DNA of 64,000 bases from an uncultured Anaerolineales bacterium (GTDB taxonomy: Bacteria > Chloroflexota > Anaerolineae > UBA7937 > B3-Chlor). Where the stretch lies: positions 15,972-79,971 of the forward strand of contig CAZOBP010000002.1 in the NCBI GenBank assembly GCA_964577995.1. The letters are read 5' to 3'. Below, piece after piece: positions 9,046 to 56,472 of this stretch. Numbering within the stretch: position 1 is the first letter of the stretch; every line of letters begins with the position of its first letter. Position numbers and translations under genes: made by a program. The notes under the pieces were generated by a model, which saw only the letters and a program-made list of their open reading frames with translations, made no database searches and was not told the DNA's origin.

Positions 9046-9744
9046 CTAGGGCGCCTTCTCGAAGCGGTAGCCCACGCCTATCTCGGTCTGGATGTACCTG
9101 GGGTTCTTGGGGTCCTGCTCCAACTTCTGCCGGAGATGCCAGACATAGACCCGCACGTAGTCCAGATCGTCTTGGTACTCCCACCCCCAGACGTTCTGGA
9201 GGATTTGCGTGAAGGTGAGGACCTGACCCGCATTCTGGACGAGGTAGGCCAATAGACGGTACTCGGTGGCCGTGAGCTTCACCTGTTCTCCCCCTACGGT
9301 CACGCGACGCTCCTTGAGATCGATGGTGAGGAAGTCGTCTGCGTAGGTGGTAGGCTCAGCGTACTCAGCGGGGGGCAGGGCAGCTCGACGGAGGACTGCT
9401 CGAGCATGAGCGAGCAGGACCTTGATGCTGAAGGGCTTGGTGAGGTAGTCGTCGGCCCCGTACTCCAGGCCGCGGACGATGTCTTCGTCCTGTCCGCGCG
9501 CGGTGAGCATCACAATGGGGGCATCCGAAACTTCTCGAATGCGCCGGCAGGTCTCCCATCCATCCATGCGGGGCATCATGATATCCAGAATGACCAGGTC
9601 TGGCTTGTGAGCGAAGAACTCCCTCAAAGCCTCCTTGCCGTCGCAGGCCGTGAGAACCTCGTAACCTTCCCGGGCAAAGGTGTATTCGATCAGAGGGAGC
9701 AGTGCAGGATCGTCGTCGACGACCAGGACTCTCTTTTGTTCCAT
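9046..9744 (-). CDS. OmpR-family response regulator
   Basis: REC domain (VLVVDDDP, LDIMMPRMDG, LTKPF) plus a winged-helix output (TEYRLLAYL, GVGYRF). The likely start is the ATG at 9744. Confidence 0.9.
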   Translation of the reverse strand: MEQKRVLVVDDDPALLPLIEYTFAREGYEVLTACDGKEALREFFAHKPDLVILDIMMPRMDGWETCRRIREVSDAPIVMLTARGQDEDIVRGLEYGADDYLTKPFSIKVLLAHARAVLRRAALPPAEYAEPTTYADDFLTIDLKERRVTVGGEQVKLTATEYRLLAYLVQNAGQVLTFTQILQNVWGWEYQDDLDYVRVYVWHLRQKLEQDPKNPRYIQTEIGVGYRFEKAP

Positions 9745-10091
9745 CCGCTGGGCCGCACCTCGGTGGTACACTCAGTGACTAGTGCTAATCATACTGCAAC
9801 TGGCCCTTGAGGGCAAAGACCACACAGTGAGGTCAGCGTCGTGCTGTGGTTCTTGGCGCGCCGCGTTTGTCCAGAGGTGGTCGCAGATCGTGCCCCTGGG
9901 GCTAGCTGGTGCAAAGCTGAGTCTTGCCCGTGGAACGACCTGTCTCCGGCGTCCTGGTTGGTGCGCGCCACGTGGTTTGCGAGGGAGCAGGACGGCTTGC
10001 GACCCTCCTGCATGACATGGCAAAGTGAGGTGGGAAGGCGAGGGTCGTGGGCGCGGTCGCCAGAGTTCGACAACAGAGTACTTTTTTCCCA

Positions 10092-10121
10092 TTGACGCAG
10101 ATACTATCAATCCAGTATAAT
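10092..10121 (+). promoter_or_regulatory. Sigma70-like promoter TTGACG-18nt-TATAAT
   Basis: TTGACG at 10092-10097 and TATAAT at 10116-10121, in a locally AT-rich patch about 40 nt upstream of the riboswitch aptamer. Confidence 0.55.
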
Positions 10122-10163
10122 TGGGTCAGAACCTAGTCAAACGATACATCGCGTGCTGGATCA

Positions 10164-10263
10164 CAGCGATAAAGGCAAACCCATCGAAAGGTGGGGACGC
10201 AAAGCCATGGATCTAAGGCTCCGGGAGGGGCGATGATCGCCAGGCTGCCGAAAGTGACCGCTG
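10164..10263 (+). promoter_or_regulatory. c-di-GMP-I (GEMM-I) riboswitch aptamer
   Basis: AAAGGCAAACCCAUCGAAAGGUGGGGACGCAAAGCC matches the GEMM-I core: GCAAAC, a GAAA tetraloop hairpin and GGGACGCAAAGCC. The second arm has a CUAAG tetraloop-receptor-like element. A closing helix pairs CAGCG (10164-68) with CGCUG (10259-63). Confidence 0.8.
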
Positions 10264-10291
10264 CACACCGCGGACGTTCTTCCACTGATCG

Positions 10292-10318
10292 ACGCCTGGC
10301 GTGAGCCAGGCGTTTTTC
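10292..10318 (+). terminator. Intrinsic terminator forming the riboswitch expression platform
   Basis: ACGCCTGGC-GTGA-GCCAGGCGT followed by TTTTT. GCCAGGC also occurs inside the aptamer (10239-45) and could pair with 10294-10300 instead. Confidence 0.75.
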
Positions 10319-10448
10319 TATCTCCATCGCCCAGGTACCAAGGACCCTGGCAGGAATCGGGTCTTTTCGTTGGCGAAATCAGGATTCTCCCGATACACAG
10401 CCTGGCCAAGACTGGGTATTCTAGAAAGTGAGATGGGGAGGGCATAGT

Positions 10449-10649
10449 GTGAGGAACCGAAAGGAGAGGTTGCTCAGGGCTAAGGAAGCAGCCGAGTACC
10501 TCGGAGTGAGCCTTGTAACCCTGCGTAGGATGGAGAAGCAGGGCGCGCTCTCACCCTATCGTACGCCGGGAGGACACCGTAGATACAGCATAGAGATGCT
10601 TGAGGAGTACCTGGAGAGTTCTCGAAGATTCTCAGGCGCGACTCAATAG
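10449..10649 (+). CDS. Small HTH DNA-binding protein (excisionase/MerR-type HTH_17-like)
   Basis: LLRAKEAAEYLGVSLVTLRRMEKQGALSPYRTPGGHRRY is a typical excisionase-family HTH. GTG 10449 follows GGGGAGGG; GTG 10428 is an alternative start. Confidence 0.7.
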   Translation: MRNRKERLLRAKEAAEYLGVSLVTLRRMEKQGALSPYRTPGGHRRYSIEMLEEYLESSRRFSGATQ

Positions 10650-10944
10650 CAGGCCACGGCCGGTGATTCGGTTGGGATCATTCCTCACACCCAGGTCGTG
10701 GAGCGCGAACTGCGGAGTTGTCCCGCCGGCGGCGGATAGCACAGACTCGATGCCGATTGTATGGGGTGAGCGGGGAGTTTGCGATGACCATGACGAGCAG
10801 TACGATCACTGTGGCCAGGAACGAATACTGGTGTTCGCTGTGTAGCATGGGTGAGCAGACAGATAGCGTGCCCTGAAAACGTTGGGACTACGGGCTAGCT
10901 ACCTGGTTCTTCACAAGGACCGGAGGGTGATGAGGCGCTAAACG

Positions 10945-12146
10945 ATGACTCAGAGCAAGGTTCTCATAGTTGATGATGATAGGCTGACCCTGACCATAGT
11001 GGCAGATACGCTGCGAGAGGCTGGGTTGGTGGTGGAAACCGCGCAGAACGGTCAAGAAGCACTGCACAAGCTAGCGGATTCAACCCTGACCTGATCGTCC
11101 TGGACGTGGTCATGCCCGACTTGGACGGCTACGAGGTCGCTCGTCGGTTGCGACAGGATCCCGCTTGGGCGCTGATTCCCATCATCATGCTCACCACCAA
11201 GGGTGGTATCGCCGACAAGGTGACTGCTTTCCAGGCAGGGGCAGACGATTACCTGACCAAGCCTTTCGATCCGGTCGAACTCGAGGTGAGGGTCAAGGCG
11301 CATCTGGCAAGGACCCGAGCAGCGCTGGGTGTACAGCGCACCAAGCCCAGAGGCAAGGTCATCACGCTATTCAGCCTGCGAGGCGGAGCGGGCGTGACGT
11401 CCCTGGCGGTCAATCTCGCCGCAGCACTAGCTCAATTGTGGCAGGTGGAGGTACCTCTGCTCGATCTGGCTCTGGAATCCGGTCATGCAGCCCTGATGCT
11501 TGACGTGAGGCCCAAATACACGCTGGCAGAACTGGCGCGGAAGTCGCTGGCCGATGTCGAGTTTGGCCTCTTGGCTGGCTATCTGGCGGACCACGAGTCC
11601 GGAGTGAGAGTCCTGGCGGCGCCCAGAAGTGCGGAAGAGGCTGGCCTGGTGACGCCATCCCTGGTGGACAAGATCCTTTCCCTACTCAGGGAGCGGTTCG
11701 AGTACCTGGTCATAGATACTCCGTCGGCCTTCACCGAAGTCACTCTGGCGACGCTCGATGCTTCCGATCTGATCATCCTGGTGGTCACGCCGGAGATCGC
11801 GGGAGTGAAGGTGATGGTGAACACACTAGATATCTTCGCGTCACTGGGCTACCCCGAGGAGCGGCTACTGGCGGTCGTCAACCACAACCTGCCAAAGGGA
11901 GCACTACCCACGGAGAACATTCAGGCTTCTCTGCGTATACCAGTGATGGACGGTGTGCCGTATGACAGCGGGGCGTTCGTGCAAGGCATTAACAAAGGTG
12001 TGCCCTTCGTGTTGAGCGGGACTTCGAGCGACGCAGCCAGGGTGGTAGCGCGCCTGGCGTACCAAGTGAGCAAGCCGGAGATGCAGCAGAGCAGGCCCGA
12101 ATCGCCCTCACCTTTGCTGCAGAGCGTCCGGCGGACTCTGAAGTGA
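10945..12146 (+). pseudogene. TadZ/CpaE-like protein (receiver domain + ParA/MinD-type ATPase) with a 1-nt frameshift inside the receiver domain
   Basis: ATG 10945 gives MTQSKVLIVDDD...EALHKLADS and then stops at 11092. The frame of ORF 11106..12146 already reads NPDLIVLDVVMPDLDG from 11082. The C-terminal part has FSLRGGAGVTSLAVNLA (deviant Walker A) and LVIDTP. Confidence 0.75.
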
Positions 12147-12156
12147 GGCAAGAAGG

Positions 12157-13383
12157 ATGAACTGTCCAGAATGCGGGGAAGAACTTGTGGGCAATGAGGC
12201 GGTATGTCCTCATTGTCTGACCCGATTGGCTGTCCTGGAGCAGCAAGGGGAAGCCAACTCGGTTGTGTCGGAAAGTCCCGTGGGTCCGGTGCTGCTGCGA
12301 CCGCTGGGCAAGCGGTTCTCCGCACCTTCTGTCCCAAAGCGCAGGTTGGTGATAGGTGCACTGATACCAGTCGCCCTGATCGTGGTTGCCTCGCTGTGGG
12401 TGACCAGAGCGCAGCGCGACGCGGCGTACTACTTCAATGAGGCCGAGAGGCTCTATGAGGGACGGCAATACGAATCTGCGCTTGTATCCTATCGCAGGGT
12501 GACGGACTTGGAGCCTGAACTTGGTGTGGTCTACGCTCGAATGGGATGGTGCTACTACCACCTGGCGCGCGACGAGGAGTCGGTTCCGCAGTTCCGGAGG
12601 GCCATCGAGCTCGAGCCAGAATTGGCGGAAGCGCACGCGGGCTTGGGTCAGGCCTACTACTACCTGAGGGAGTATCCAGAGGCGGAGAGTGCTCTACGGG
12701 GGGCCATCGAACTGGACAATCGAAGGGCGGAAAGCTATGGCTATCTCGGCTCTGCTCTCTTCTGGCAGGACAGGTATGAAGAGGCGATACAGCCGTTGAC
12801 GGAGGCTACTCGCCTCGATCCATTCGATGCTGACTCTCATGAGTTCCTTGGGCGCTCCTACTTCCTGCTGGGCAGGTACAACGACGCACTGAGCCCTCTG
12901 AGCACGGCCATTGGACTCGATGCTGATGACGTTGACGTGACGCGAGCTCTGGCACAAACCTACTACGAGTTGGGACGGTACGAGCAGGCCGGCCCCTACT
13001 TCTTGGATTTGCTAGCCTACGAACCAGACGACCCAGAGCTCTATCTACTGCTAGGTCGCTCCTTGTACGAGGATGGAGACTATGGTCAGGCCATCGCCCA
13101 GTTGAACGTAGCTCTGGACAAACTGAGCGTGGGCCTCGTGGCGCCAGCAAGCTACCGTTATCTGGGCTGGTCCTATTATGAACTCGAGCGGTACCAAGAG
13201 GCGATCTATCTCTTTGAGCGGTCGCTGATCTTCGAAGCGGAACAGGCGGACACCTACAGTGGCCTCGGCTGGTGCTATCAACGTCTGGACAGATGCGAGG
13301 AGGCAGTGCCCATGTTCGAGCGGGCACTGGAGCTGGATCACACCCTACAGACAGCTAGAGGAGGTCTCGATGCGTGCCGGTAG
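12157..13383 (+). CDS. Zinc-ribbon / single-TM / TPR-repeat protein
   Basis: N-terminal CPECG...CPHC, one hydrophobic helix (LVIGALIPVALIVVASLWV), then about 8 TPR-like repeats (A..Y...G.Y.EA...). Confidence 0.8.
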   Translation: MNCPECGEELVGNEAVCPHCLTRLAVLEQQGEANSVVSESPVGPVLLRPLGKRFSAPSVPKRRLVIGALIPVALIVVASLWVTRAQRDAAYYFNEAERLYEGRQYESALVSYRRVTDLEPELGVVYARMGWCYYHLARDEESVPQFRRAIELEPELAEAHAGLGQAYYYLREYPEAESALRGAIELDNRRAESYGYLGSALFWQDRYEEAIQPLTEATRLDPFDADSHEFLGRSYFLLGRYNDALSPLSTAIGLDADDVDVTRALAQTYYELGRYEQAGPYFLDLLAYEPDDPELYLLLGRSLYEDGDYGQAIAQLNVALDKLSVGLVAPASYRYLGWSYYELERYQEAIYLFERSLIFEAEQADTYSGLGWCYQRLDRCEEAVPMFERALELDHTLQTARGGLDACR

Positions 13384-14035
13384 GTTGTACTCAGTTGGTG
13401 CGTCAGGAAGTGAGGCGGAAACGGGGCAGGGCCTGGTCGAGTACGCGCTGATCGTGGCCCTGGTGGCCCTAGTCGTCAGCGCTGTGCTGATTGCCCTGGG
13501 ACCAGCGATTGGCGACGCCTTCAGAGCTGTCCAGGACAGGATGCGCGAGCTTGGTGCCGGTGCAGCGACTCCCGTCGCCACCAGCGAGCCAGGTGTTACA
13601 GTTACCCCAGGTCCTGCTGAGGTCGTCATCGACCCCTCCTGTTCCTGCTTTGACTGCAAGGGTTCATCGAAGGGAAAGCCCTCTGAACGCACCCCCGAGG
13701 AGGAGCATATATGCTTCACCAACCGAGAAGCATACGCGGTGGACATGACAGGGTGGACGGTGACGGATGCGGTGAATCACCGCTACACCTTCCCGCGTTT
13801 CCACCTCCAGGCGGGGGCGAGTGTCAAGCTGTATAGTGACAGGGGCGCCGATACGGAGACCGATCTCTACTGGGGAACGGAAGGCAACATCTGGAACGAC
13901 AAGGGCGACACTGCATACCTACGTAATGCAACCGGCGTCCTGGTTGACGAGTACTCGTATGGACGCATGGTACCTCCAGCTGCGACGTTGGTGCCTGATC
14001 CGAGCCCGCCGCCGGTGAGTCCTGTGCTGCCCTAG
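13370..14035 (+). CDS. Flp-type prepilin-like N-terminus fused to a lamin-tail-domain (LTD)-like C-terminus
   Basis: ATG 13370 follows AGAGGAGG. The leader MRAGRLYSVGASGSEAETG precedes QGLVEYALIVALVALVV (a G-x4-EY class III signal), then ...LGPAIGDAFRAV. After a linker comes AVDMTGWTVTD..YTFP..L.AG..V.LYS...IWNDKGDTAYL, which is LTD-like. Confidence 0.6.
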   Translation: MRAGRLYSVGASGSEAETGQGLVEYALIVALVALVVSAVLIALGPAIGDAFRAVQDRMRELGAGAATPVATSEPGVTVTPGPAEVVIDPSCSCFDCKGSSKGKPSERTPEEEHICFTNREAYAVDMTGWTVTDAVNHRYTFPRFHLQAGASVKLYSDRGADTETDLYWGTEGNIWNDKGDTAYLRNATGVLVDEYSYGRMVPPAATLVPDPSPPPVSPVLP

Positions 14036-14211
14036 CTAGGGGTGATGGTGGTCAAAAGGTGCACGCTGAAGAAGACTGTGGCAATCTATTGGCGGTTGTG
14101 CAGGAAAGCGGGGGGCAGGCAGCCCGACCGCGCTTGGATACCGTGACAAACTCGATCTCCGTGCGTAGAGAAGTGGCAATTCCGGAAGCAGGCGCCCTTG
14201 AATCGGCCGGC

Positions 14212-14985
14212 ATGCGCGCTGCCCGGGTGGCAGATTGCACCGGTGGCATGGAGACCGGTCAGTCATTGGTCGAGTATTGCCTGTTATTGCTTCTGGTAGC
14301 GATCATCGTGCTGGGGGGCGTGTGGCTGGTAGGAATGCGGGTGTCGAGAGCGTACGGGAGAGTGACCACGAACATCGGCGAGTCCGAGGAGGTGCCCACG
14401 CCCGTGCCCACAGCCACGCCCGAGGAGGGTAGTTCATCCTGGCAGGAGTGGCAAGAAGCGGCTGGCAGCGGGTGGCGTGCGGAGACGACGCGGTACTGTG
14501 TGGATCAGCAGGGTGAGCACAGATCGTTCTACGGCGCTGAGAACTGGACGGACTACATCATTCGAGTGAAGGCCAATCTCTATCAAGGGGAGGGCTATGG
14601 CGTGTTCTTCAGGGCCGTCGATGTGAGTCACGTCAGCGGCTATGTGTTCCAGTATGAGCCTACCTGTAGGTATCTGGGCCGAGAAGGATGTTTCAGTCTC
14701 CGAAAGGTTGTCGGCGGCCGTGTTGAGTACCCGTTCGCCCGAAGCAGCGTGCCGTCTGACTACGAATGGTACAACGCTCCAAGAGACATCGAAGTGCAAG
14801 TGGAGGGTAGCTCTTTCAGAGCCTTCATCGACGGCGAGGAGGTATTGATGGGGACGGATGGTGAGTACACCCACGGTCAGGTGGGTCTACGCACCTGGGA
14901 CGCATCGGAAGTCTGCTTCTGGGAGTTCACGATCACTTTCCTCGAGCAGCCGGATCGGGATCGTGACGATCGGGATGGACAGTAG
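14212..14985 (+). CDS. Flp-type prepilin-like N-terminus fused to a ConA-like/DUF1080-like beta-sandwich domain
   Basis: MRAARVADCTGGMETG precedes QSLVEYCLLLLLVAIIVL (G-x4-EY). After a P/T/E linker come WTDYIIRVKA, GYGVFFRA, GYVFQY and GQVGLRTW, as in 3-keto-disaccharide-hydrolase/LamG-like domains. The start could be ATG 14248. Confidence 0.55.
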   Translation: MRAARVADCTGGMETGQSLVEYCLLLLLVAIIVLGGVWLVGMRVSRAYGRVTTNIGESEEVPTPVPTATPEEGSSSWQEWQEAAGSGWRAETTRYCVDQQGEHRSFYGAENWTDYIIRVKANLYQGEGYGVFFRAVDVSHVSGYVFQYEPTCRYLGREGCFSLRKVVGGRVEYPFARSSVPSDYEWYNAPRDIEVQVEGSSFRAFIDGEEVLMGTDGEYTHGQVGLRTWDASEVCFWEFTITFLEQPDRDRDDRDGQ

Positions 14986-15080
14986 AAGGGAGGAGACCCG
15001 GTCAACTGATCGCGCATTGATGGAGGGCAGTGCTTGAGCGGCGTATGTATGGGTGCAGGGTGATCACTCTGCGAGAATGA

Positions 15081-15470
15081 ATGGCTGGTGATGAGATGGA
15101 CGTAGCGAAATACAAGGACTTGTATCTCACCGAGGCTTACGCACAGGTCGCTGTGATGGAAGAGGGGGTTGCGGCGCTTGGGGACTCTCCGGCAGACTCT
15201 GAACTCCTGTCGAGCATCAGTCGCGCTGCCCACACGTTGAAGGGTATGTCTGCGACGATGGGGTATGAGAAACTGGCTCGGCTAGCCGGCGGAGTGGAGA
15301 GACTGATGGACTCGAACACACTCCGGAGCGTAGCCGGTACGTCTGAGCTCGGTGATCTGCTGACTGACTGCATCGAAACACTTCGCCTACTCTTAGGGCA
15401 GGTTGTCGACGGGAGCGCCTGCGAAGTCGAGTTGGACGCCTTACTGCGGCGGATGGAGCTTCTTGCCTAG
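15081..15470 (+). CDS. Stand-alone Hpt (histidine phosphotransfer) domain protein
   Basis: AAHTLKGMSATMGYEKLARLA is the HxLKG Hpt signature. The size is about 125 aa. Confidence 0.75.
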   Translation: MAGDEMDVAKYKDLYLTEAYAQVAVMEEGVAALGDSPADSELLSSISRAAHTLKGMSATMGYEKLARLAGGVERLMDSNTLRSVAGTSELGDLLTDCIETLRLLLGQVVDGSACEVELDALLRRMELLA

Positions 15471-15528
15471 CAAGAACGACTATGCTGATCTGCTTCGAGT
15501 CACCAGTCGAACAGGAGGGAGGGGGAGC

Positions 15529-15909
15529 GTGGTAAGAATACTGTTGGTCGAGGACGAGGCAAGCCTTCGGCGCTTGATCGAGTATGCACTTCAAACCAGG
15601 GGGTATGAAGTGGTCGTGGCTGCCGACGGGCGCCAGGGACTGGACAAGGCACGATCTGAATCGCCGGATCTCATTCTCCTCGACATGGTCATGCCGGAAA
15701 TGGGCGGAATGGAGGTCCTCAGCGCGTTGAAGAAGGATGCGCGTTTGAAGGACATTCCGGTGCTGATTGTGACTGCCAGTGCGCAGAAAGGGGATGCGGA
15801 GAAGGCCATGGGTATGGGCGCGGCAGGCTATCTGACCAAGCCTTTCCACGTGCCCACTCTGTACGACAGAGTTGAAGAACTCCTGTCCGGTGTAGCCGAG
15901 AAAGGTTAG
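15529..15909 (+). CDS. Single-domain CheY-like response regulator
   Basis: GTG 15529 follows GGAGGGAGGGGGAG, with ILLVEDE, LILLDMVMPEMGG and YLTKPF. Confidence 0.9.
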   Translation: MVRILLVEDEASLRRLIEYALQTRGYEVVVAADGRQGLDKARSESPDLILLDMVMPEMGGMEVLSALKKDARLKDIPVLIVTASAQKGDAEKAMGMGAAGYLTKPFHVPTLYDRVEELLSGVAEKG

Positions 15910-15924
15910 AGGGGATGAGAGTAG

Positions 15925-16320
15925 ATGGGCAGAATCCTTGTGGTGGATGATTCTCCATTCATGGTGCGCCTCGTAACGTACATGCTGGAGTCCGCAGGCC
16001 ATGAGACGGCGAGCGCTGAGAACGGGAAAGTCGCGCTTGGCCTTATGGCCGAGGAGGTCCCGGACCTGGTGTTCCTTGACAGCATGATGCCCGAGATGGA
16101 CGGTTTGGAGACGCTGCGCGCAATCAGAGCGAACCCCAACACCATGGACGTGCCGGTCCTCATGCTGACGGCCAAGGCCCAGGACGACGACTACCTGGCT
16201 GCCAGGGAGGCGGGCGCCAATGGGTACCTGACCAAGCCGTTCAACCGGGCTGACGTGTTGGACAGCGTGGCTCGGTGCCTGGGTCCCGGATCTGAAGGAG
16301 CGGACGAGGAAGATGAGTGA
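15925..16320 (+). CDS. Single-domain CheY-like response regulator
   Basis: ILVVDDSP, VFLDSMMPEMDG and YLTKPF. The stop overlaps the start of the next gene. Confidence 0.9.
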   Translation: MGRILVVDDSPFMVRLVTYMLESAGHETASAENGKVALGLMAEEVPDLVFLDSMMPEMDGLETLRAIRANPNTMDVPVLMLTAKAQDDDYLAAREAGANGYLTKPFNRADVLDSVARCLGPGSEGADEEDE

Positions 16321-17146
16321 GAGTCCCGGTGCCAGAGAGGAAGTAGTCCGGCTGAAGTGGTACGTCGTGGCTGCCACCGTCGCTCTCATTACCCTCTTGG
16401 AGGTGTTCTATCTGACGGTGGTGGAAGTGCCACCGGTGGAGTGTCTGATCCAGTGGATAGTGGTTACGGGTTTGGCCCTGGCACTCATCCACTTCACGTT
16501 CACGATGGCGCTCAGGGAGCATGACCGCGTCGAACAACAGGCGCGGCAACTAGCAAGGCCGCTTGCGGAGGGCGAGAAAGACCGGGATGCCATCAGACGC
16601 CTGGCGTATCACGACGAACTGACCGGTTTGCCCAACCGTGCGCTGTTCTAAGATCGACTGGAGGTGGCGACATCTCGTGCGCGACGCAACGGTTCCAAGC
16701 TTGTGGTGATGTTGATGGACTTGGATCGGTTCAAGGAGATCAACGACACACTTGGGCATGCGGCGGGGGATCGCTTGCTACAGAGGGTTGGGGAGCGGCT
16801 GACGGCCACTGTGCGGAAGAGCGATACCGTATGTCGGATGGGTGGCGATGAGTTCCTCTTGCTCTTCCCTGACCCGGACCGCTCGGAGGAGGCGGACGTA
16901 ATCGCCGATAAGGTTCTGACAGCGATCAGGGACCCTATTGGTGTGGGTGATCTGCAACTACAGATCACCACCAGCCTTGGCGCAGCGCTGTACCCAGATC
17001 ATGGCATAGATTGTGATACTCTCATTAGCAGCGCTGACATCGCCATGTACCATGTCAAGGATAATGGGCGAGACGGCTATCAGTGGCATGCTCCAACGCA
17101 GAAGAGGGGGCAGCTTCCTGGTCCGGATCTCGCGGCCGGGAGGTGA
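16313..17146 (+). pseudogene. Membrane-anchored GGDEF diguanylate cyclase interrupted by one in-frame TAA (16649-16651)
   Basis: ORFs 16313..16651 and 16664..17146 share a frame. The read is ...DELTGLPNRALF*DRLEVA...LMDLDRFKEINDTLGHAAGD...RKSDTVCRMGGDEFLL. Two N-terminal TM helices are present, and the GGDEF and RxxD I-site motifs are intact. Confidence 0.75.
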
Positions 17147-17151
17147 GAGCT

Positions 17152-20100
17152 GTGACAGACGAGCGCATGACCAGGGAGCAGTTGATGGGCGAGGTGCTCG
17201 AGCTACGGCACAAAGTCGCCGAACTGGAGTCATTGGAGCAGGGGGGGAGGAGGGCCGAGGAGGAGGCCCGCAAGGAGCGGGACAAGACCCAGAAATACCT
17301 CGACGTCGCAGGGGTGATCTTCGTGGTCATCGGCGTAAACGAAGAGGTGGAGCTTGTCAACAAGCAGGGCTGTGAGGTTCTGGGGTACGACGAGCATGAG
17401 ATCGTCGGCCGGAACTGGTTCGAGACGTTTCTCCCGGCCCGAGTCAGGGATGACGTGCGGGCGGTTTTCACCTCACTGATGAACGGCGCTCTCGAGCCGG
17501 CCGAACGTTATGAGAATCCCATCCTGGCCAAGGCCGGGGAGGAGCGCACCATCGTCTGGCACAATACTGTTCTCACGGACGAAACAGGTGTCATTGTCGG
17601 GGCTATCTCGTCAGGGCAGGACATTACTGAGCGCAGGCAGGCGGAAAAGGCCTTACGAGAGAGTGAGAGGAGCTTCAGGGCACTGGCCGACAATGCCAGT
17701 GATGGTATTCTCATCGGGACGAGTAGTGGTCTACACATATACGCCAATCGACGGGCAGCAGAGATCACAGGCTACGAAGCGGATGAGTTGGTGGATATGG
17801 GGATTCGAGATCTCGTCCATCCCGATGAGCTGTCGACGGTTCTCGAGACCTACAGGAAGCGATTGGAGGGCCAATCGGCTCCGCGCCACTACGAGACGCG
17901 CTTTGTGCGGAACGACGGGACGACGGTGGCGGTGGAGTTGGCGGGTGCGAAGACCGTCTGGCAGGGACTGCCCGCCGACCTAGTTCTCTTTCGCGACATA
18001 GCCGAGCGCAAGCAGGCCGAGACCGAACTCAGAGATTCCGAGGAGCGACTCAGAACACTGTTCGAGTCCGCGCCCGTGGCCTACTACCTGAATGATCTGC
18101 GAGGGACATTCCTCGACGGCAATAGAGCTGCGGAGCAACTGTTCGGCTACGCACGGGAGGAGTTGGTCGGAAGCAGCCTCCTGGAGCTGAGACTGCTCTC
18201 CGCAGACCAGCTTCCTCGCTCCTCTGCTCTCCTGGCCAGAAGTGCTATGGGTGACGCTACCGGCCCCGATGAGTTCGTGCTGAACCGCAGAGACGGCACG
18301 GAGGTCGCCATGGAGATAAGCACATACCCGGTCAAGTTGAAGGGCGACTCTGTGATCCTCGGTATTGCCAGGGACATCACCCAGAGTAAAGATGCTGAAG
18401 AGGCGCTGAGGGAGAACGAACAGCGCTATCGCGGGTTGTTCGAGAACTCTCCCATCGCCCTCTGGGAGGAGGATGCCTCGGAAGTCAAGAGATACATAGA
18501 TGAACTGCGTGCCTCGGGTGTCAAGGACTACAGGAGCTACTTTGGCAGTCACCCAGGGGCCGTTCGCGAGTGCACGGGATTGGTCAGAATACTCGACGTG
18601 AATCAGGCTACCCTGGACTTGTACGGGGCAGAGAGTAAGGAGGAACTGCTGGCAGGTCTGGACCAGGTACTCGCCGAAGGCTCGTATGACATCTTCAAGG
18701 AGGAAGTGCTTGCCATCGCCGAAGGCAGAACCCAATTCGATGCTGAGACGAGAGCGCGAACTCTCTCGGGCGAGGCCCGGGATATTGCCTTGAGATGGAC
18801 GGTGGCCCCTGGCTGCGAGGAGACCTTCTCGAGCGTGTTGGTCTCAGACATAGATGTCACTGAGCGCACAAGGGCGGAAAGGGAGATCAGGCATCGCACG
18901 AGCCAGTTGACTCTTGTCAACAAAGTGGGGCAAAGGCTGGCTCCCATCCTGGAGTCTGTCCAGCTCTACACGATGGTGGTCCAGGCTGTCCAGGAGGAGT
19001 TCGGCTACCAGATGGTCGGCTTCTTCTTGGTGAGAGGCGACGAGTTGGTCGTGGAGGCGGCGGCTGGACCCTTTAAGGAATCCATCCCGGTGGGGCACAG
19101 TCAGAAGATAGGCGAAGGCACCCTGGGCTGGGTGGCCGAGCACGGAAAGCCGTTGCTGGTCAACGATGCAAGCGAGGAATCTCGCTTCTTGGAGGTGGAG
19201 ACACTAGACATCGCAGCCGAGCTGGACGTGCCCGTGACTGTCGCTGGTCAGACGATAGGCGTGATAGCGGTCGCGAGTGACTCTGCCAACGTCTTTTCCG
19301 AGACGGACGTCACGGCCATGGAGGCGATAGCCGGTCAGGTTGCCCGCGCCATCGAGAACTCCCGGCTGTACGAGCAGGAGCGGCGTCGCGGGATTCAGAG
19401 AGAGACGATCGCCGAAGTGGGGCGGGCGATCGCCGCTATTCTGGACATGGACACTCTGCTCTCACGGGTTGTGGAACTGGTGGCACAGAACTTCGGATAC
19501 TATGCAGTGAATGTGTTCGAGGTCGATGCAGCGTCTGAATACGCTGCCTTCAGAGCCTCAACGGTGGAATCCGAGGGCAGCGGGCGGGAAGGTCTCCGGC
19601 TCAGAGTAGGTGAGGAGGGGATTGTGGGATGGGTAGCCGGCAGTGGGCAACCGCTGATGGTCGATGACGTCAGTCGCGAGCCCCGTTTCCGATTCGACCC
19701 GGCGGTTGCTGACACACGTTCAGAGGTGGCGGTACCCATCAGGCTTGGAGACAAGGTCGTCGGCGTGTTGGACGTGCTCAGTGATGAGGTAGATGCCTTC
19801 GACGAGAGCGTTTTGGGGACCCTGGAAACTCTGGCGCACTCACTGGCCGTGGCCATGGAGAACGCCCGCCTGTATGAGGAGGAGAGGAGACGATCTGAGG
19901 AACTATCGGCGCTCCTGGATACGGCGCAAGCCCTGGCCTCGTCGCTGGACTTGGAGGAGGTTTTGGAGATCGTAGCGCGCCAGGTGAAGGCACTGACCCA
20001 AGCGGACGGTGGTCGTATCTACTTGTTGGAGCCCGATGGGCAGACGCTACGGCCCCTTGTGGCGCTGGGGGTGGAGGCGGAAGAGATGATGGCCTTCTCC

Positions 20101-21504
20101 TTTGGCATTGGGCAGGGCATTACTGGCCAAGTGGCTGCCACAGGGAATGCAGAGGTGGTGAATGATGTCCATAGGGATCCGAGAGGCTTGCACATCCCCG
20201 GGACCACACAAGAACCGATGTCTATGCTGTGTGTGCCACTTGCCATCAAGGGGGATGTGGCAGGAGTGATGGCAGTGTCTAGGTTCGGAGAGCGGCCCTT
20301 CGATGACCAGGATCTCCAGTTGGCGATCAGCATGGCGAGCCATGCGGCGACCGCCATCGAGAACTCCCGGCTCTATCAATCGGTTGCTGACAGAGAGACC
20401 AAACTCCGGGACCAGATCGAATCTGCCGCCGATGCCATCTTCAATCTGGATCCCCAGGGGAGGTTAACGCTCTTCAACGGGGAGGCGGAGAGGCTCTCTG
20501 GCTTCAGGCGCGATGAGGTATTGGGATACCACTACACTCAGATGCTGTGGCCGGAGCAGACCGAGCAGATGCGCAGTCTGCTGTCGCCCGATGTCGGTGG
20601 GGAAGTATTACAGCAAGCCTATGAGATCGATTTCCTCGACAAGTGGGGACAGCGGGTTCCTATGGAGATCCGCGTCAGCGCTCTCGAGCGTGCAGGACGT
20701 CTGGAGGGCTGGCAAGTCATCGGTCGGGATGTCAGCGAGCGACGGCGTCTTGAGGAGATGAAGAGCCAGTTCCTGGCTACCGTGTCGCATGATTTGAGAA
20801 CGCCCTTGGCATCAATCATGGGTTTCACCGAGATGCTTGTGGAGGGAAGCCCCGGTCCCTTGACAGAGATACAGGATGAGTTCCTCGGGATAGTCTTCGA
20901 GAACTCCCAGCGCCTGATGGCTCTGGTCAACGATCTCCTGGACATCTCCAAGTTGGAGGTTGGGCGGACCAGCCTGGTGGTGAAGACCATAGAGTTGCCG
21001 CGCCTGATCGCTGGTGTGATTGACGAGATGAGCCCGCTGACCTACAGGAAGAACATCTCGCTCGAGGTAGACTGTGCAGAGACGCTGCCCCCGACACAAG
21101 GCGATCAAAGGCGACTGGAGCAGGTCCTCAACAACCTGCTTTCCAACGCAGTGAAGTTCACGCCTGAGGGAGGAAGGGTGGAAGTCAAGGCGGAGCTGGA
21201 AGGGGAGCAGTTGGTGGTCACCGTGAGAGACACGGGTCTCGGCATACCTCCGGACGATCTGCCCCATCTGTTTCAGCCGTTTCACCGAGGTGGGAATGTG
21301 ACCGAGCAGGCTATCGAGGGGACGGGTCTGGGCCTGAGCATTGCCAAGGCTTTGGTCGAGGCGCACGGTGGCGACATGGGAGTGGAGAGCGAGTTGGGCA
21401 AAGGTAGCACGTTCTGGTTCACGTTACCTGTCAAGGAACCTGCGCTGTCTGAGCCAGTCCAGACCGATGGAGGACCGGATCTGGGATCGTTGCCACGTGG
21501 TTGA
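17152..21504 (+). CDS. Large multi-PAS/multi-GAF sensor histidine kinase
   Basis: Coiled-coil N-terminus, repeated PAS blocks, three GAF-like blocks, H-box SHDLRTPL and HATPase boxes [27 protein letters not shown] 17152 follows GGGAGGTGAGAG. There is no receiver domain. Confidence 0.9.
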
Positions 21505-21654
21505 CAGGTGGGAATGGGTTTTTGAGGGAGTTGCTGGGCAAGCTATCTCCTCGCCGACGGCGGAGAACGGACCCTGGCGTGGTCCACTTCCCACTCTGGG
21601 TGCGCCGGGTGCCAGGCTCCATGATCCGCTCGCAGTGTCTTGAAGGGGCCTTGC

Positions 21655-21682
21655 TTGCAATGGGGGCATACCTGGGTATAAT
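21655..21682 (+). promoter_or_regulatory. Sigma70-like promoter TTGCAA-16nt-TATAAT
   Basis: TTGCAA at 21655-60 and TATAAT at 21677-82, 64 nt upstream of the ferredoxin ATG. Confidence 0.5.
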
Positions 21683-21685
21683 TAG

Positions 21686-22015
<330 letters not shown>

Positions 22016-22063
22016 GGAGCTTCCTGCGATCGCAGACGGTGTCCTCTAGACCAATTGCCGAAG

Positions 22064-22116
22064 AAAAAGCCCGGGAAACGGGAGTGTCCGTACTCCCTCC
22101 CACCCAGGCTTTTTTG
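22064..22116. terminator. Bidirectional intrinsic terminator between convergent genes
   Basis: AAAAAGCCCGGG...(inner hairpin CGGGAGT-GTCCGT-ACTCCC)...CCCAGGCTTTTTT, with an A-tract 5' and a T-tract 3'. Confidence 0.65.
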
Positions 22117-22260
22117 CTGTCCGCCACCCGCTTGGTGTTGGCCTCTCCCGACGTCAGGCGGCCACACCTGCGCACGCGGAACGGCTTCCGAGTGCCTGGC
22201 GAGTGGTTCTCTCTGGCCCAGAGTGGCGAGAAGTGATGCCGAGGCTTAGCACGCTGGTGG

Positions 22261-22446
22261 TCACACGAAGGCGTTGATCAGCAGAACGAGAGGCGTCTCG
22301 AGTGGCGCCGGCGTTGGTGTGGGTGGAGTCGGTGAGGGCATGGCGGTCAGCACATAGCCTATGGCCATGCTTATGACCACCAGGAGACTTAAGATGATGA
22401 AGAGGATCTGACTGGTTCGGGGTTTCTGCGATCGTTTTCGAGCCAA
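22261..22446 (-). CDS. Small membrane protein (61 aa), function unknown
   Basis: TTG start 5 nt after GGGAGGAG. The protein has a basic N-terminus, one TM helix (ILFIILSLLVVISMAIGYVL) and a Pro/Thr-rich tail. A TTGCAT-17-TACAAT promoter-like pair lies on the minus strand at 22505-22477. Confidence 0.45.
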   Translation of the reverse strand: MARKRSQKPRTSQILFIILSLLVVISMAIGYVLTAMPSPTPPTPTPAPLETPLVLLINAFV

Positions 22447-22723
22447 CTGCTCCTCCCTTGACAGGACTTCTGCTTTATTGTAAGACAGTTATCGCCGGGA
22501 TGCAAAGTGACATGGTCGAACGAGCAGCCGGAGCATGTCCAGGTTCCGGGGTAGGTGGATCGGGAGGGGCGGTCCTGGGAGAGGGAGGTAGGGGCAGACC
22601 CTGTATCTCGGTCGCCGCATCTCGAGGCGGAGACGGGCACTCAGCTGCTGGAACAGGGTGTCGAGATCTGGCACGCCCGCCATCGGGAGTCGTCTTGATT
22701 GGGCAGCAGCGTGCGTCCCTTGC

Positions 22724-22752
22724 TTGACTTTGGGACCTAGCGATGGTAAGAT
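22724..22752 (+). promoter_or_regulatory. Sigma70-like promoter TTGACT-17nt-TAAGAT
   Basis: TTGACT at 22724-29 and TAAGAT at 22747-52, upstream of the GAF kinase gene. Confidence 0.45.
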
Positions 22753-22805
22753 GCGACGCGTGCCTCCAGGTCGTGCTCGGCGACACAGACTAGCGCGAGG
22801 CTTGT

Positions 22806-25145
22806 GTGACTGTGTGTTCGGCAACAGGCGACGTCGAGGATTGCGGATCCGGTGCTTCGCACCGTGAGTTGATGGCACTCGATGCGCTTGTCAAATCGAG
22901 TGCGGAATCCGCAGATCTAGACGAAGTGCTCTGGCTTGCCCTGGACAGGATTGCGGAGATCACAGGGCTTGAGATCGCCTACGTCAGCCTGTATGACGAG
23001 GAGAGGCGGGAACTGGAGGTCGTCGCCCATACGGCTCGGGACGAGGACCCTTCTGGCAAGGATAGTTGGACGATGTTGCCCCAGGACCTTGTGGGGCGAG
23101 TTGCTCGCACGGCGGAAGCAGTATTGGTTGAGGACACCTGGGTAGATCCCAGATTCTCCGATGGGACGGCTGCGCAGCCGCAAGTTCGTAGCGCTGCGAG
23201 CATACCGCTCAAGTCTAGAGGGACCGTGTTGGGCGTCTTGAGCGTGGCGAGTGCACAGCCGTTTCGATTCACCCCCCTTCATCAGGCCTTCTTGTCCGTC
23301 CTGGCTGGTCAACTGAGTTGGGCGATTGAGAGCACCGTTCTGCGAGAGAGGCTGAATAGCTCTCGGCTCCATCTGCGAGAACGGGTCAAGGAACTCAGCA
23401 TCCTCTATGACGTTAGCCGGGAAGCTCTGGTGGCTGAGAACGTTGAACGCTTCTTGACCTTTGTGGCCCGGCGACTACCGGCCTCGATGCAGCACCAGCG
23501 GGCGAAGGCAGTCGTGTTCTGCAGCGCGGGGACCTGCGACTACTCGACGTGGTCAGACAATGTGGACGAGGCCATCGCGGAGAGGTTGGCCGTCGTCCCT
23601 GGTGAGGGGACACTGGGCAAGCTCCTGGTCGATAGGGGAGTGCTCTTGGAGTATGCAATCTCCAGGCTGGACGATCTCCTGGGGGAGTGCGACGTCAAGT
23701 CCGTGCTGGCGGTACCGGTCTTCGTCAACGGGGAGACGATAGGCTCGATTGCCGTGTACTACCAGAATGATAGATGGCGCTTCCTGGAGGAGGAGATCGA
23801 TCTGCTTCGCGGGATCTCAGAGCAAGTGGCGCAGTACCTCGCGCGGGATGCCATAGAACGGGAGAACCAGCGCCACGTTCAAGAGGTTTCCACTCTCTTC
23901 GAGGTCTCCAAGGCACTTGCATCTGTCGTGGATATTGAGGGGCTACTGCCCGCCATCCAACACACGCTGATGGAGGCGGTCGGACCTGCCGAAGCCGGGG
24001 TTCTCTTGCTGTTCGACAAGGTGACGGGGATGCTCCGGGTTGCATCCTCTTTCGGCTACGACGTCGAGACCTTGCACAGGGTCAGCTTGCGAACAGGCGA
24101 GTCCATATCCGGCCAAGTGTTCGAATCTGGCATGCCGGGGGTCTGGAGCACTCCAGACGAGTCTGAGTCTGCCATGGCCACCATGACCGCGCACAACCGT
24201 GAGTTCTTCAGGCAGGCATCGCGCGGTCTGGACTTTCCCAGAAGTGCAATTGGCGTACCGCTCATATATCGGGATGAGAAGATTGGCGTGCTCACGCTGG
24301 AGACCTTTGGCAGCGCTGAGTGGTTCTCGGGGTCACACGTTCCGTTCCTGCAAGCCCTTGCCGAGTTGTTGGTCATCAATCTAACTCAGATCCGACTGCT
24401 ACAGGAGACAGAGGAAGCTCGGGCCGTGCAGGAGGCGGACCGGTTGAGATCGGAACTGATCGCGGCGTTGGCGCATGATATGCGCACCCCGCTGACCTCC
24501 ATACAGGGTTACGCGTCGGCGTTGTTGCTCGACGACGTCGAGTGGGACGAAACATCCCGGGCAAGACAGTTGCAGATCATAGAAGCGGAGGCCAGGGATC
24601 TGCAGGCCATGGTCCAGGACTTGCTGGAATCATCTATTGTCGACGCCGGCCTGCTGACATTGGCTAAGGAACCCACTCTGGTGCCTCGCCTGGTCGAGAG
24701 TCTAGTGCGTGAGATGGCTCGTCGCACGGCAAGGCATCGATTTGTGCTAAGCTTCCCCGCTGACTTTCCGATCATAGATGCGGACCCCCGGCGTCTCGAG
24801 CAAGTGATACGCAACGTGCTCGACAATGCCGTGAAGTATTCGCCTGACGGCGGGCTGGTGGTCGTAAGGGGGCAGGTGGCTGGTGACGAGGTCATCATCA
24901 GCGTGGCCGACAATGGCGTGGGAATCGCCCCAGAACACCTGAACCGACTCTTCGAGAAGTTCTTCCGGGTGAAGTCGCCCATTGGTGAAAAAGTGCGGGG
25001 CACGGGACTTGGGCTTCCAGTATCCCGCACTATAGTGGAAAGCCACGGCGGCAGGATCTGGGCCGAGAGCGAGGTGGGCAAGGGAACGACCATGTACTTC
25101 TCTCTGCCCTGCCGGCAAGGCGCAGATACACATGCATCCGACTGA
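22806..25145 (+). CDS. Multi-GAF sensor histidine kinase
   Basis: GAF-like blocks, H-box AHDMRTPLTSI and HATPase boxes NVLDNAVKYS, DNGVGI, GTGLGL. The start is uncertain (GTG 22806 or ATG 22872). Confidence 0.9.
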   Translation: MTVCSATGDVEDCGSGASHRELMALDALVKSSAESADLDEVLWLALDRIAEITGLEIAYVSLYDEERRELEVVAHTARDEDPSGKDSWTMLPQDLVGRVARTAEAVLVEDTWVDPRFSDGTAAQPQVRSAASIPLKSRGTVLGVLSVASAQPFRFTPLHQAFLSVLAGQLSWAIESTVLRERLNSSRLHLRERVKELSILYDVSREALVAENVERFLTFVARRLPASMQHQRAKAVVFCSAGTCDYSTWSDNVDEAIAERLAVVPGEGTLGKLLVDRGVLLEYAISRLDDLLGECDVKSVLAVPVFVNGETIGSIAVYYQNDRWRFLEEEIDLLRGISEQVAQYLARDAIERENQRHVQEVSTLFEVSKALASVVDIEGLLPAIQHTLMEAVGPAEAGVLLLFDKVTGMLRVASSFGYDVETLHRVSLRTGESISGQVFESGMPGVWSTPDESESAMATMTAHNREFFRQASRGLDFPRSAIGVPLIYRDEKIGVLTLETFGSAEWFSGSHVPFLQALAELLVINLTQIRLLQETEEARAVQEADRLRSELIAALAHDMRTPLTSIQGYASALLLDDVEWDETSRARQLQIIEAEARDLQAMVQDLLESSIVDAGLLTLAKEPTLVPRLVESLVREMARRTARHRFVLSFPADFPIIDADPRRLEQVIRNVLDNAVKYSPDGGLVVVRGQVAGDEVIISVADNGVGIAPEHLNRLFEKFFRVKSPIGEKVRGTGLGLPVSRTIVESHGGRIWAESEVGKGTTMYFSLPCRQGADTHASD

Positions 25146-54669: not shown

Positions 54670-55326
54670 GTGACTCGTGAGACATTCGACGAACAGCTAA
54701 GAGCGCTCGAGCAAGATGTCCTGGAAATGGGCAAGATGGTCGACAAGGCGATTGACCTCAGTGTCGAGGCTCTCAAGAAGCGAGACATCGATCTCTCCCG
54801 GCAGGTGGTACGAGACGACTTGGCGATCAACCAGGCCCAACACGACATCGAGGAGCAGTGTCTCGTGTTGATTGCCACGCAGCAGCCCCTGGCCAGTGAT
54901 CTTAGAGTGATCTTTGCCATCGCCAACATAGCCACAGAGCTGGAGCGGATGGCGGACCACGCCAAGGGGATTGGGCAGATCGGAGTCATGATGGGCCCTC
55001 GTGAACCCCTCAAGCCGCTCGTGGACATCCCCCGCATGGCCAGGAAGGGCCGCTGGCTGCTGGAGCAGGAGCTGACGGCCTTCGTCAACCGTGACACCGA
55101 GCTGGCCAGAAGCCTGGGCGACGAGGATGACGAGGTGGACAGGCTCTACGACCAGGTCTTCCGGGAGTTGCTCATCTTCATGATGGACGACCCGCGTACC
55201 ATCACCAGGGCGACTTATCTTCTCTGGGTCGCTCACAATCTCGAGCGGATTGCCGACCGTGCGATCAACATCGGAGAACGAGTGGTGTTTCTGGTCAGCG
55301 GCGAGGTTGAAGAGCACAATGCCTAG
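54670..55326 (+). CDS. phoU: Phosphate-signalling regulator PhoU
   Basis: 218 aa with two PhoU repeats, each carrying the E..ERIADHA/DRA-type motif (LERMADHAKGI, LERIADRAINI). Confidence 0.9.
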   Translation: MTRETFDEQLRALEQDVLEMGKMVDKAIDLSVEALKKRDIDLSRQVVRDDLAINQAQHDIEEQCLVLIATQQPLASDLRVIFAIANIATELERMADHAKGIGQIGVMMGPREPLKPLVDIPRMARKGRWLLEQELTAFVNRDTELARSLGDEDDEVDRLYDQVFRELLIFMMDDPRTITRATYLLWVAHNLERIADRAINIGERVVFLVSGEVEEHNA

Positions 55327-56467: not shown

Positions 56468-56472
56468 GCAAC

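Follow-up and report, generated by a model that had tools for sequence, protein, structure and literature searches.

The window analysed here is a 64,000 nucleotide (nt) stretch of DNA from an uncultured Anaerolineales bacterium (contig CAZOBP010000002.1, positions 15,972-79,971; assembly GCA_964577995.1), in which a riboswitch for cyclic di-guanosine monophosphate (c-di-GMP) heads a cluster of genes for two Flp-type pilins with additional C-terminal domains, a protein resembling the TadZ/CpaE proteins of Tad pilus loci (REC-ParA) and the predicted components of a phosphorelay. The cluster consists of a promoter-like site and a c-di-GMP-I aptamer followed by ten genes that end at position 21504, all on the + strand (coordinates refer to the window; loci compared from other genomes or contigs are numbered L001-L049). 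The genes encode, in order, a small DNA-binding protein, REC-ParA, a TPR protein, the two modular Flp pilins, an Hpt phosphotransfer protein, two single-domain receivers, a GGDEF diguanylate cyclase and a PAS/GAF kinase. An initial annotation made from the letters of the DNA had counted eleven same-strand elements from riboswitch to kinase, which the riboswitch and ten genes confirm. Its list of genes was also correct in composition according to Pfam and Rfam, but not in the intactness of the genes, as those for REC-ParA and the GGDEF protein are both broken.

Intergenic spacing across the cluster is confined to short gaps or overlaps. A scan of 9700-22900 detected no + strand promoter-like site and no convincing terminator inside the cluster, and the sole other good + strand promoter match in this interval was at 21655, 3' of the kinase gene. 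Because internal promoters and terminators were not detected and genes lie 10 nt apart or overlap, the cluster can be read as a single operon, transcribed from one promoter through the c-di-GMP-I riboswitch.

Modular Flp pilin 1 (13370-14035; 221 amino acids (aa); identified by Pfam) comprises a leader, a G/QGLVEY prepilin motif, a hydrophobic helix, a Pro/Thr-rich linker and a lamin tail domain (Pfam LTD 3e-19, Flp_Fap 5e-5), and its prepilin motif was unchanged in 11 orthologs. Modular Flp pilin 2 (14059-14985; open reading frame (ORF) of 308 aa) has a Flp-like N-terminus with a G/QSLVEY motif, unchanged in orthologs, followed by a hydrophobic helix, a Pro/Thr-rich linker and a CBM66/DUF1080-like beta-sandwich domain (weak Pfam match to 3keto-disac_hyd, and profile match); its start is likely at 14212 or 14248, giving a protein of about 245-257 aa. 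Both fusions carry the leader Gly, Glu at +5 and Tyr at +6 (G/XXXXEY) and the hydrophobic helix of a Flp signal, and the initial annotation of two Flp-type prepilins was borne out by the invariant G/QxLVEY motif and by the N-terminal 47 residues. A profile of these residues matched thousands of Flp pilins of 48-55 aa from Anaerolineae and Ardenticatenales at E about 1e-16, with 58-68% identity over nearly the full length, and the profiles of both fusions matched the solved Tad pilins 8U1K and 8U2B (E 3e-5 to 2e-3). Since the N-terminal profile matches full Flp pilins as well as solved Tad pilins, each fusion consists of a whole Flp pilin joined by a Pro/Thr-rich linker to a head domain. Mature Flp pilins normally measure about 45-80 aa and have no globular domain; the fusions depart from this form, pilin 1 having 221 aa with the LTD and pilin 2 about 245-257 aa with the CBM66-like domain. 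Low-confidence structure models of the two proteins (helix at residues 20-62 and then beta strands, pLDDT 57, for pilin 1; helix at residues 19-53, pLDDT 44, for pilin 2) agree with a long N-terminal helix followed by beta strands.

The arrangement of prepilin signal and helix, linker, and a domain also found outside pilus biology is that of a modular pilin and was present in both fusions. The family profile of Flp pilin 2 matched the levanase CBM66 structures 4B1M, 4AZZ and 4B1L (E 4e-18 over about 165 residues) as well as Tad pilins (3e-5), and Pfam 3keto-disac_hyd was found in 19 out of 20 family members. This family comprises 614 representatives at E<1e-3, and a Flp-type N-terminus was present in 90 of the best 150. 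In several others the same CBM66/DUF1080-like head was found behind type IVa-like N-termini (P0292, P0297, P0298, P0349; GFTLIEM, AFTIIEI, GFSLLEM), so that the module appears to have been grafted onto two different pilin classes. Its presence on both kinds of N-terminus argues that display on a pilin is the normal use of this head. The named members of the family are proteins from Anaerolineales metagenome-assembled genomes (MAGs) that are annotated as DUF1080 only, and NCBIfam gave no specific family for the fusion pilins or for the TPR protein. Relatives of the Flp-LTD protein form about 20 clusters with 57-100% identity in MAGs of Anaerolineae. A further fusion was found in L010 (5625-6197, - strand), where a Peptidase_M23 domain (E 7e-35) is joined to a canonical Flp N-terminus (G/QGTLEY; Pfam Flp_Fap and Class_IIIsignal) in a protein of 190 aa. 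Its gene lies about 3.5 kb from a related cluster of HTH_17, REC-ParA and kinase/Hpt/receiver genes.

Pfam scans of all window ORFs of 150 aa or more identified no T2SSE/CpaF, T2SSF/TadB-C, prepilin peptidase (peptidase A24) or secretin domain in the 64 kb, in agreement with the initial annotation, which had reported TadA/CpaF, TadB/C, secretin and prepilin peptidase as absent. A complete Tad set (CpaF/TadA, TadB, TadC and TadV) is thus not encoded within the window, and its remaining long ORFs are metabolic, transport and signalling genes. The absence of a secretin is expected in a Chloroflexota cell, which is likely to have a single membrane. Anaerolineales usually carry a separate flp-cpaB-cpaE-cpaF-tadB-tadC cluster (PMC4877987), of which L049 is an example, and an orphan short Flp gene was found far from machine genes in L018. 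The tip clusters of Myxococcus (PMC12075869) set a precedent for pilin genes that are clustered apart from the Tad machine they serve. The initial annotation had read the locus as an accessory cassette for such a machine; this is still the best available reading, but it is unproven, as no machine was found in the 64 kb scanned.

REC-ParA (10945-12146) has a Pfam Response_reg domain (6e-32) followed by an AAA_31/ParA domain. Intact orthologs are 400 aa in length and contain a canonical receiver with all phospho-acceptor residues. The protein aligned end to end with the TadZ of L049 (31% identity, E 6e-53), a true Tad locus in the MAG of another organism that encodes flp, REC-ParA (TadZ), CpaF, TadB and TadC. 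The P-loop is RGGAGVTS in the window and KGGSGCTT in the TadZ of L049, both proteins sharing a lysine-less GGxGxT[TS]. With this Walker A motif, the receiver-like N-domain and the MinD/ParA-like domain, the architecture is that of TadZ/CpaE. The initial annotation of a TadZ/CpaE-like ATPase with a receiver is consistent with this architecture and homology; the label of ATPase, however, is doubtful because the P-loop has no lysine, and the gene is frameshifted (a 1-nt deletion that is fixed in the population). The genomic context also differs from that of TadZ/CpaE, with no cpaF/tadA or tadB/tadC neighbours in the window or beside any ortholog. The best PDB matches of the ParA-like domain were archaeal MinD (1HYQ, 6e-12) and other MinD, ParA and FleN proteins, with none named TadZ among 24 hits, and no TadZ/CpaE model was among the best 25 of 106 NCBIfam hits. 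The nearest homologs outside the clade (33-54% identity) were found in five settings, all devoid of Tad genes: one comprises HTH_17 and a phosphorelay, one exopolysaccharide genes and one SIR2 and a kinase, and in the other two the gene adjoins a microcompartment locus or stands alone. Because these relatives sit in non-Tad contexts, REC-ParA is not by itself evidence of pilus function, and its sequence is best read as that of a TadZ-family paralog rather than a marker of a Tad machine. Separately, in L011 (10001-18348) two REC-ParA paralogs, a REC-GGDEF protein and a Hpt-HATPase protein are encoded directly upstream of exopolysaccharide genes (glycosyltransferase, Wzz, ParA-like tyrosine kinase), which suggests that the REC-ParA subfamily may serve several surface-structure pathways.

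The TPR gene (12157-13383; 408 aa) starts 10 nt past REC-ParA and overlaps the Flp pilin 1 gene by 14 nt. Its product has a zinc ribbon (Pfam Zn_Ribbon_1), one transmembrane helix and TPR families with E-values down to 8e-42 in Pfam, with only generic TPR matches, below cut-off, in NCBIfam; a length of 408 aa was found in all relatives. The first gene of the cluster (10449-10649) encodes a 66-aa helix-turn-helix (HTH) protein (Pfam HTH_17 1.7e-13, MerR 8.6e-11; NCBIfam excisionase domain 2.5e-11) of the excisionase/BldC-like HTH_17 kind, which scored below the cut-off of the NCBIfam BldC subfamily model and has 83-95% identity in relatives. A 68-aa ORF between the HTH and REC-ParA genes of L009 was rejected as a further gene, since its protein sequence is not conserved and the distance between the two flanking genes ranges from 137 to 295 nt.

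Downstream of the pilins, the Hpt protein (15081-15470; 129 aa; Pfam Hpt 1.3e-13) contains the motif AHTLKG and was kept in all relatives. It is followed by receiver 1 (15529-15909; 126 aa; Pfam Response_reg 1.3e-29), in which the acidic pocket, phospho-acceptor Asp, Thr and Lys can be read, and by receiver 2 (15925-16320; 131 aa; 1.4e-31), an identical protein on 14 contigs; the motifs LLDMVMP and FLDSMMP are readable in the receivers. The kinase (17152-21504; about 1450 aa, with the start taken from the L043 gene call) is cytoplasmic and has several PAS domains, three GAF domains, HisKA and HATPase_c, with no receiver domain (Pfam); its length in relatives ranges from 1261 to more than 1811 aa. 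A HisKA/HATPase kinase without a receiver, separate Asp receivers and an Hpt with HxxKG are the parts expected of a phosphorelay, and Pfam supports the initial proposal that the locus has its own (kinase, Hpt, two receivers and the REC domain of REC-ParA), as far as domains can predict it. The GGDEF gene (16313-17146; Pfam GGDEF 1.4e-50 with the stop masked) encodes a membrane-anchored diguanylate cyclase with an RxxD I-site (RKSD) and a GGDEF motif, the domain being cut by an in-frame TAA in the window.

The sigma-70-type promoter-like site (TTGACG-18 nt-TATAAT; 10092-10121) has 11 of 12 consensus matches and was the top promoter-like match in 9700-22900, with CCCATTGAC and GTATAAT unchanged across four orthologous leaders. 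The aptamer (10164-10252) lies in the 5' leader, about 40 nt past this site, with terminator T1 36 nt and the first gene 200 nt downstream. It is a full-length member of RF01051 (model positions 1-87) with a covariance-model score of 87.4 bits against a gathering score of 35 (E 6e-16), and its P1 stem is formed by UCAC paired with GUGA just beyond these limits. An aptamer of the same clan was found at the same place in all seven related loci scanned (64-87 bits). The L009 aptamer (9135-9223) scored higher with the model of the c-di-GMP-I-GGC variant (71 bits against a cut-off of 59); its assignment to this variant (RF03167) was rejected, since the diagnostic position GACGC[A]AAGC has A and not G and the score looks like an artefact.

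T1 (10291-10320) is an intrinsic terminator with a 10-bp stem containing 7 G-C pairs (GACGCCUGGC-GUGA-GCCAGGCGUU) and a U-rich tail. A second terminator-like hairpin, T2 (10342-10372; GGACCCUGG...GGGUC, then UUUUCGUU), was recognized by hairpin detection and comparison with related leaders, seven of which have a clean terminator as its counterpart (GGACCCUGGCGAACAGGGUCCUUUU). The aptamer 3' strand CGCCAGGC (10238-10245), the putative antiterminator strand, is a perfect complement of GCCUGGCG (10294-10301) in the T1 5' arm. When transcripts were cut at 10300-10304, the minimum-energy fold paired these two segments and opened the aptamer; the fold of the full-length transcript contained the aptamer and T1 together (-72.0 kcal/mol vs -61.3 antiterminated). 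T1 and the aptamer do not overlap, the 3' strand of the aptamer was the only strong competitor for the T1 5' arm, and no sequence was found in the window leader that a bound aptamer would free to block T1. Because the aptamer and T1 are compatible and the antiterminator borrows the aptamer 3' strand, folding favours an OFF layout, in which c-di-GMP binding would promote termination, as somewhat more probable than the reverse. With such a layout, the in-operon cyclase would give negative feedback, not positive gating. The initial annotation had suggested that the cyclase product feeds back on and gates the operon; the opposite sign is likely from the folding, and the cyclase gene is a pseudogene here. 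In L025 (6697-8419, in the orientation that puts the riboswitch on the + strand), on an unrelated 105-kb metagenome contig, a c-di-GMP-I riboswitch with the same P1a stem precedes genes for a secreted protein and for a protein resembling TadG, which scored above cut-off with Pfam Tad as well as Tad_C, apparently a second, independent link of these riboswitches to Tad pilin-like genes.

Two genes of the cluster are interrupted in the window. REC-ParA has a 1-nt deletion near 11070-11075 relative to its orthologs, whereby frame 1 ends at TGA 11089-11091 and the rest lies in another frame; the same frameshift was found in L007 and L043-L045. The GGDEF gene is interrupted by an in-frame TAA (16649-16651) at a position that is Lys, Gln or Asn in relatives; this stop was also present in L043, L044 and L046-L048, while the gene was intact (269-280 aa) in L003-L006, L009, L014 and L016 and separately broken by a stop and a frameshift in L001. 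Both lesions occurred in six independent assemblies from different samples, in which gene calls were split as 49 + 344 aa and 112 + 123 or 145 aa. A strain 99.87% identical to the window (15 single-nucleotide polymorphisms (SNPs), no gaps) carries the REC-ParA frameshift, its contig ending before the GGDEF gene. Sequencing error was rejected as a cause, and the lesions are real and fixed, because they recur in the six assemblies and the frameshift is present in the 15-SNP strain. Reassignment of a stop codon was also rejected, as each of the three stop codons is used to terminate ordinary window genes. Consequently, neither the c-di-GMP source of the locus nor its TadZ-like protein is intact in this genome, where the locus keeps the riboswitch and regulator, the TPR protein, the two pilins and most of the relay; the other eight cluster genes were intact in all assemblies. 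Outside the cluster, an acyl-CoA dehydrogenase gene (1654-2790, + strand), whose product shares 91.6% identity over 379 aa with its L009 ortholog, has an in-frame TAG (2317-2319) in place of the GAG (Glu) codon of L009. Three inactivating lesions thus lie within 21 kb of this genome, although an intact paralog of the dehydrogenase gene adjoins it at 2846-3991.

The full cluster with its riboswitch was found in the same order in every relative with enough sequence (L001, L003-L006, L009, L016, L041, L043-L048). Flanking metabolic genes were syntenic as well, indicating that the carriers belong to one clade, and only 3 of the 185,579 species representatives scanned carried the cluster. The comparison of gene neighbourhoods that the initial annotation had recommended thus revealed co-conservation of the genes with the riboswitch, but only within a narrow clade of Anaerolineales with syntenic flanks. 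Between the window and L009, the ratio of nonsynonymous to synonymous substitution rates (dN/dS) was 0.08-0.36 for all genes, including 0.12 and 0.25 for the broken ones, and all cluster genes are under purifying selection. Two related loci have lost most of the cluster (L030 and L040, reverse strand of the loci). The upstream OmpR-type regulator, promoter, riboswitch and terminators were kept in both, together with the HTH gene in L030, and the rest gave way to unrelated ORFs. These encode an 8xMP membrane protein, a DUF4352 protein and several products that match no family, and in L040 an ABC-ATPase fragment directly follows the leader.

Two other observations were made in the window. A 4Fe-4S ferredoxin gene (21746-22015, in the region 21719-22021, + strand) follows the kinase with its own promoter-like site (21655-21682), and its DNA is 87-88% identical to that of distant relatives compared to about 79-82% for neighbouring genes. 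A gene for the selenocysteine elongation factor SelB (56473-58389, in the region 55250-58389, + strand) follows a 405-aa ORF with no Pfam match, and the organism probably uses selenocysteine.

The explanation that we favour, to which we give about an even chance, is that the cluster is a lineage-specific accessory operon, which encodes modular Flp pilins together with a control circuit and depends on a Tad machine encoded elsewhere. The operon would be transcribed from the single promoter and switched OFF when bound c-di-GMP favours termination. It would encode the membrane TPR protein, a small MerR-type regulator, a TadZ paralog with a phosphorylatable receiver and a diguanylate cyclase, together with a four-step phosphorelay from the PAS/GAF kinase to a receiver, the Hpt protein and a further receiver. 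A prepilin peptidase would cut the fusion pilins and the remote Tad machine would insert them into filaments or at tips, giving pili with sugar-binding or other adhesive heads. The phosphorelay may act on the TadZ paralog and so decide when or where fusion pilins are inserted, and the cyclase would raise c-di-GMP and shut the operon off as a negative feedback. We advance only tentatively, and as somewhat doubtful, the wider claim that the fusions represent an undescribed class of type IVc (Tad) pilins in Anaerolineales, a whole Flp pilin with a lectin, lamin tail domain or M23 head, whose payload is chosen by a dedicated circuit (c-di-GMP OFF riboswitch, phosphorylatable TadZ paralog, phosphorelay and feedback cyclase), the whole forming a switchable payload cassette separate from the machine.

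Several observations weigh against an accessory pilin operon with this circuit. With no Tad ATPase, platform protein or prepilin peptidase in the window, the machine is assumed, as is the entry of subunits with heads of 170-200 aa into a Tad filament; the structure models of the fusions are of low confidence. The closest REC-ParA proteins from outside the clade never adjoin pilin or Tad genes, except loosely in L010. Co-conservation limited to one narrow clade with syntenic flanks is weaker evidence of functional coupling than it appears. The OFF sign comes from thermodynamic folding, in which the terminated fold is 10.7 kcal/mol more stable, so that antitermination would have to be kinetic. 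Most relatives have another platform, in which a hairpin H1 that lacks a U-tract precedes terminator T2; the hairpins of the two types cannot be aligned in register arm by arm, and OFF logic can be drawn for the H1/T2 type, less clearly. A compensatory change was found in 1 of 47 consensus pairs among nine distinct leaders, covariation too sparse to test the platform, and the near-palindromic 3' strand of the aptamer could base-pair with one H1 arm or the other. Since two genes are broken here, GGDEF was independently disrupted in L001, and L030 and L040 lack the cluster, the module is dispensable and in this organism possibly inactive. The value of the finding is further limited by the cluster's narrow distribution, by its decay in this genome and by the lack of a cultured host.

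These points leave room for other explanations, the first concerning the sign of the switch. If c-di-GMP activated the operon, as for pilA1 of C. difficile, the cyclase would provide positive feedback, as the initial annotation implied. Such an ON switch would fit the usual role of c-di-GMP in promoting adhesion and the switching on of type IV pilin genes by a c-di-GMP riboswitch (Bordeleau et al. 2015, as cited in PMC6916266), and the platform varies between lineages with covariation too thin to settle the matter; it is, however, unlikely given that T1 forms with the aptamer and does not overlap it, that the aptamer 3' strand is the only strong competitor for the T1 5' arm and that nothing was found in the leader which a bound aptamer would free to block T1. 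The accessory pilin operon also faces the alternative that the fusions do not enter long pili at all, the Flp-type signal only anchoring or releasing surface binding proteins in a bindosome-like structure or short pseudopilus. The bindosome of Sulfolobus consists of sugar-binding proteins with class III signal peptides. Large heads on a pilin that normally has no globular domain, the carbohydrate-binding type of the Flp pilin 2 head and the absence of a machine gene in the 64 kb are in keeping with such anchoring. We nevertheless judge it rather improbable, as the identity of the N-terminal 47 residues to ordinary Flp pilins (58-68% over the full length of proteins of 48-55 aa) extends beyond the signal, the same head occurs behind type IVa-like pilin N-termini, as in known modular pilins, and the TadZ paralog is translationally linked upstream.

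The fixed REC-ParA frameshift and GGDEF nonsense codon, the third in-frame stop in the nearby acyl-CoA dehydrogenase gene, the separate degradation of GGDEF in L001 and the replacement of the cluster in L030 and L040 would all be expected if the locus were a decaying remnant that no longer works as a system here, its intact genes simply not yet degraded. This would not by itself explain eight genes intact in all assemblies with unchanged promoter, aptamer and terminator, nor the low dN/dS of every gene between the window and L009, the broken ones included (0.12 and 0.25), and loss of the cyclase and a receiver could rewire rather than kill the system; we hold a remnant to be possible, with less than even likelihood. 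The cluster could finally be a chance neighbourhood of a signalling block and two surface proteins, conserved only through the close kinship of its carriers. The flanking metabolic genes are equally syntenic, only three species representatives carry the cluster, and HTH_17, REC-ParA and relay genes occur elsewhere with no adjacent pilins. Tight packing with overlaps between the TPR, Flp and receiver genes, a single strong promoter with no internal terminator, loss of the cluster as a block while its flanks stay (L030, L040) and the Flp fusion near a related cluster in L010 make mere chance very improbable.

Tad pili consist of tiny helical subunits that lack a globular head, and little is understood of how they acquire binding specificity, particularly in bacteria with a single membrane. 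Such specificity would find a simple explanation in whole Flp pilins with lectin-like, lamin tail or peptidase heads. The pilin family with the CBM66 head has many members in Anaerolineales, a group that abounds in sediments and anaerobic digesters, habitats in which the aggregation of cells is important, and the Flp-M23 protein of L010 would be a pilin bearing a cell-wall hydrolase. By coupling a riboswitch, a second-messenger cyclase and a phosphorelay to a TadZ paralog, the locus would offer a concrete circuit for the control of pilus cargo. The repeated loss of the cyclase and the loss of the whole cluster in close strains suggest shifting selection on the module.

In the paper library searched, neither Flp pilins that carry grafted domains nor a system that combines these parts was found to be described, in line with the initial annotation, whose author knew of no described system with this composition. 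The closest pilins are PilB and PilC of S. sanguinis (PMC10191384, PMC6916266), which likewise join a prepilin signal and helix through a short linker to a grafted adhesive module, that of PilC being a lectin of the concanavalin-like kind. They differ in being type IVa pilins, whereas the pilin part predicted here is Flp (type IVc, Tad), about 47 residues long and with no globular pilin domain, its genes lie outside the machine's cluster, and its heads are a CBM66-like lectin and a lamin tail domain. The Flp pilin 2 head resembles the CBM66 of the B. subtilis levanase SacC (4B1M, 4AZZ, 4B1L) by family profile match, but that module is attached to a glycoside hydrolase instead of a pilin, and sugar specificity here is only putative. 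REC-ParA shares with the TadZ/CpaE proteins of Tad loci (as in L049), of which TadZ of A. actinomycetemcomitans and CpaE of Caulobacter are examples, the receiver-like N-domain, the MinD/ParA-like domain and the lysine-less P-loop; unlike these, it does not lie beside cpaF, tadB and tadC but in an operon with a kinase, Hpt and receivers, and is frameshifted.

In mechanism, the riboswitch is closer to the Cd1 flagellar riboswitch of C. difficile, which is of class I and OFF, than to that of pilA1 in the same species. The latter is alike in placing a c-di-GMP riboswitch in the leader of a pilin operon with control by transcription termination but, in the account of Bordeleau et al. 2015 cited in PMC6916266, is of class II and ON and belongs to a type IVa cluster with its machine, compared to the class I aptamer, OFF-type layout and Flp fusions with no machine in the window. 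The Kil/Tad 'Tip' clusters of Myxococcus xanthus (PMC12075869) are similar in being separate from the machine genes and in encoding pilin-like proteins with variable C-terminal modules, which customise what the Tad pilus binds. Those modules are carried by minor pilins of the TadE/F/G type in heterotrimeric tips, whereas here they are on Flp of the major-pilin type, and the cluster in the window adds its own riboswitch, TadZ paralog and phosphorelay.

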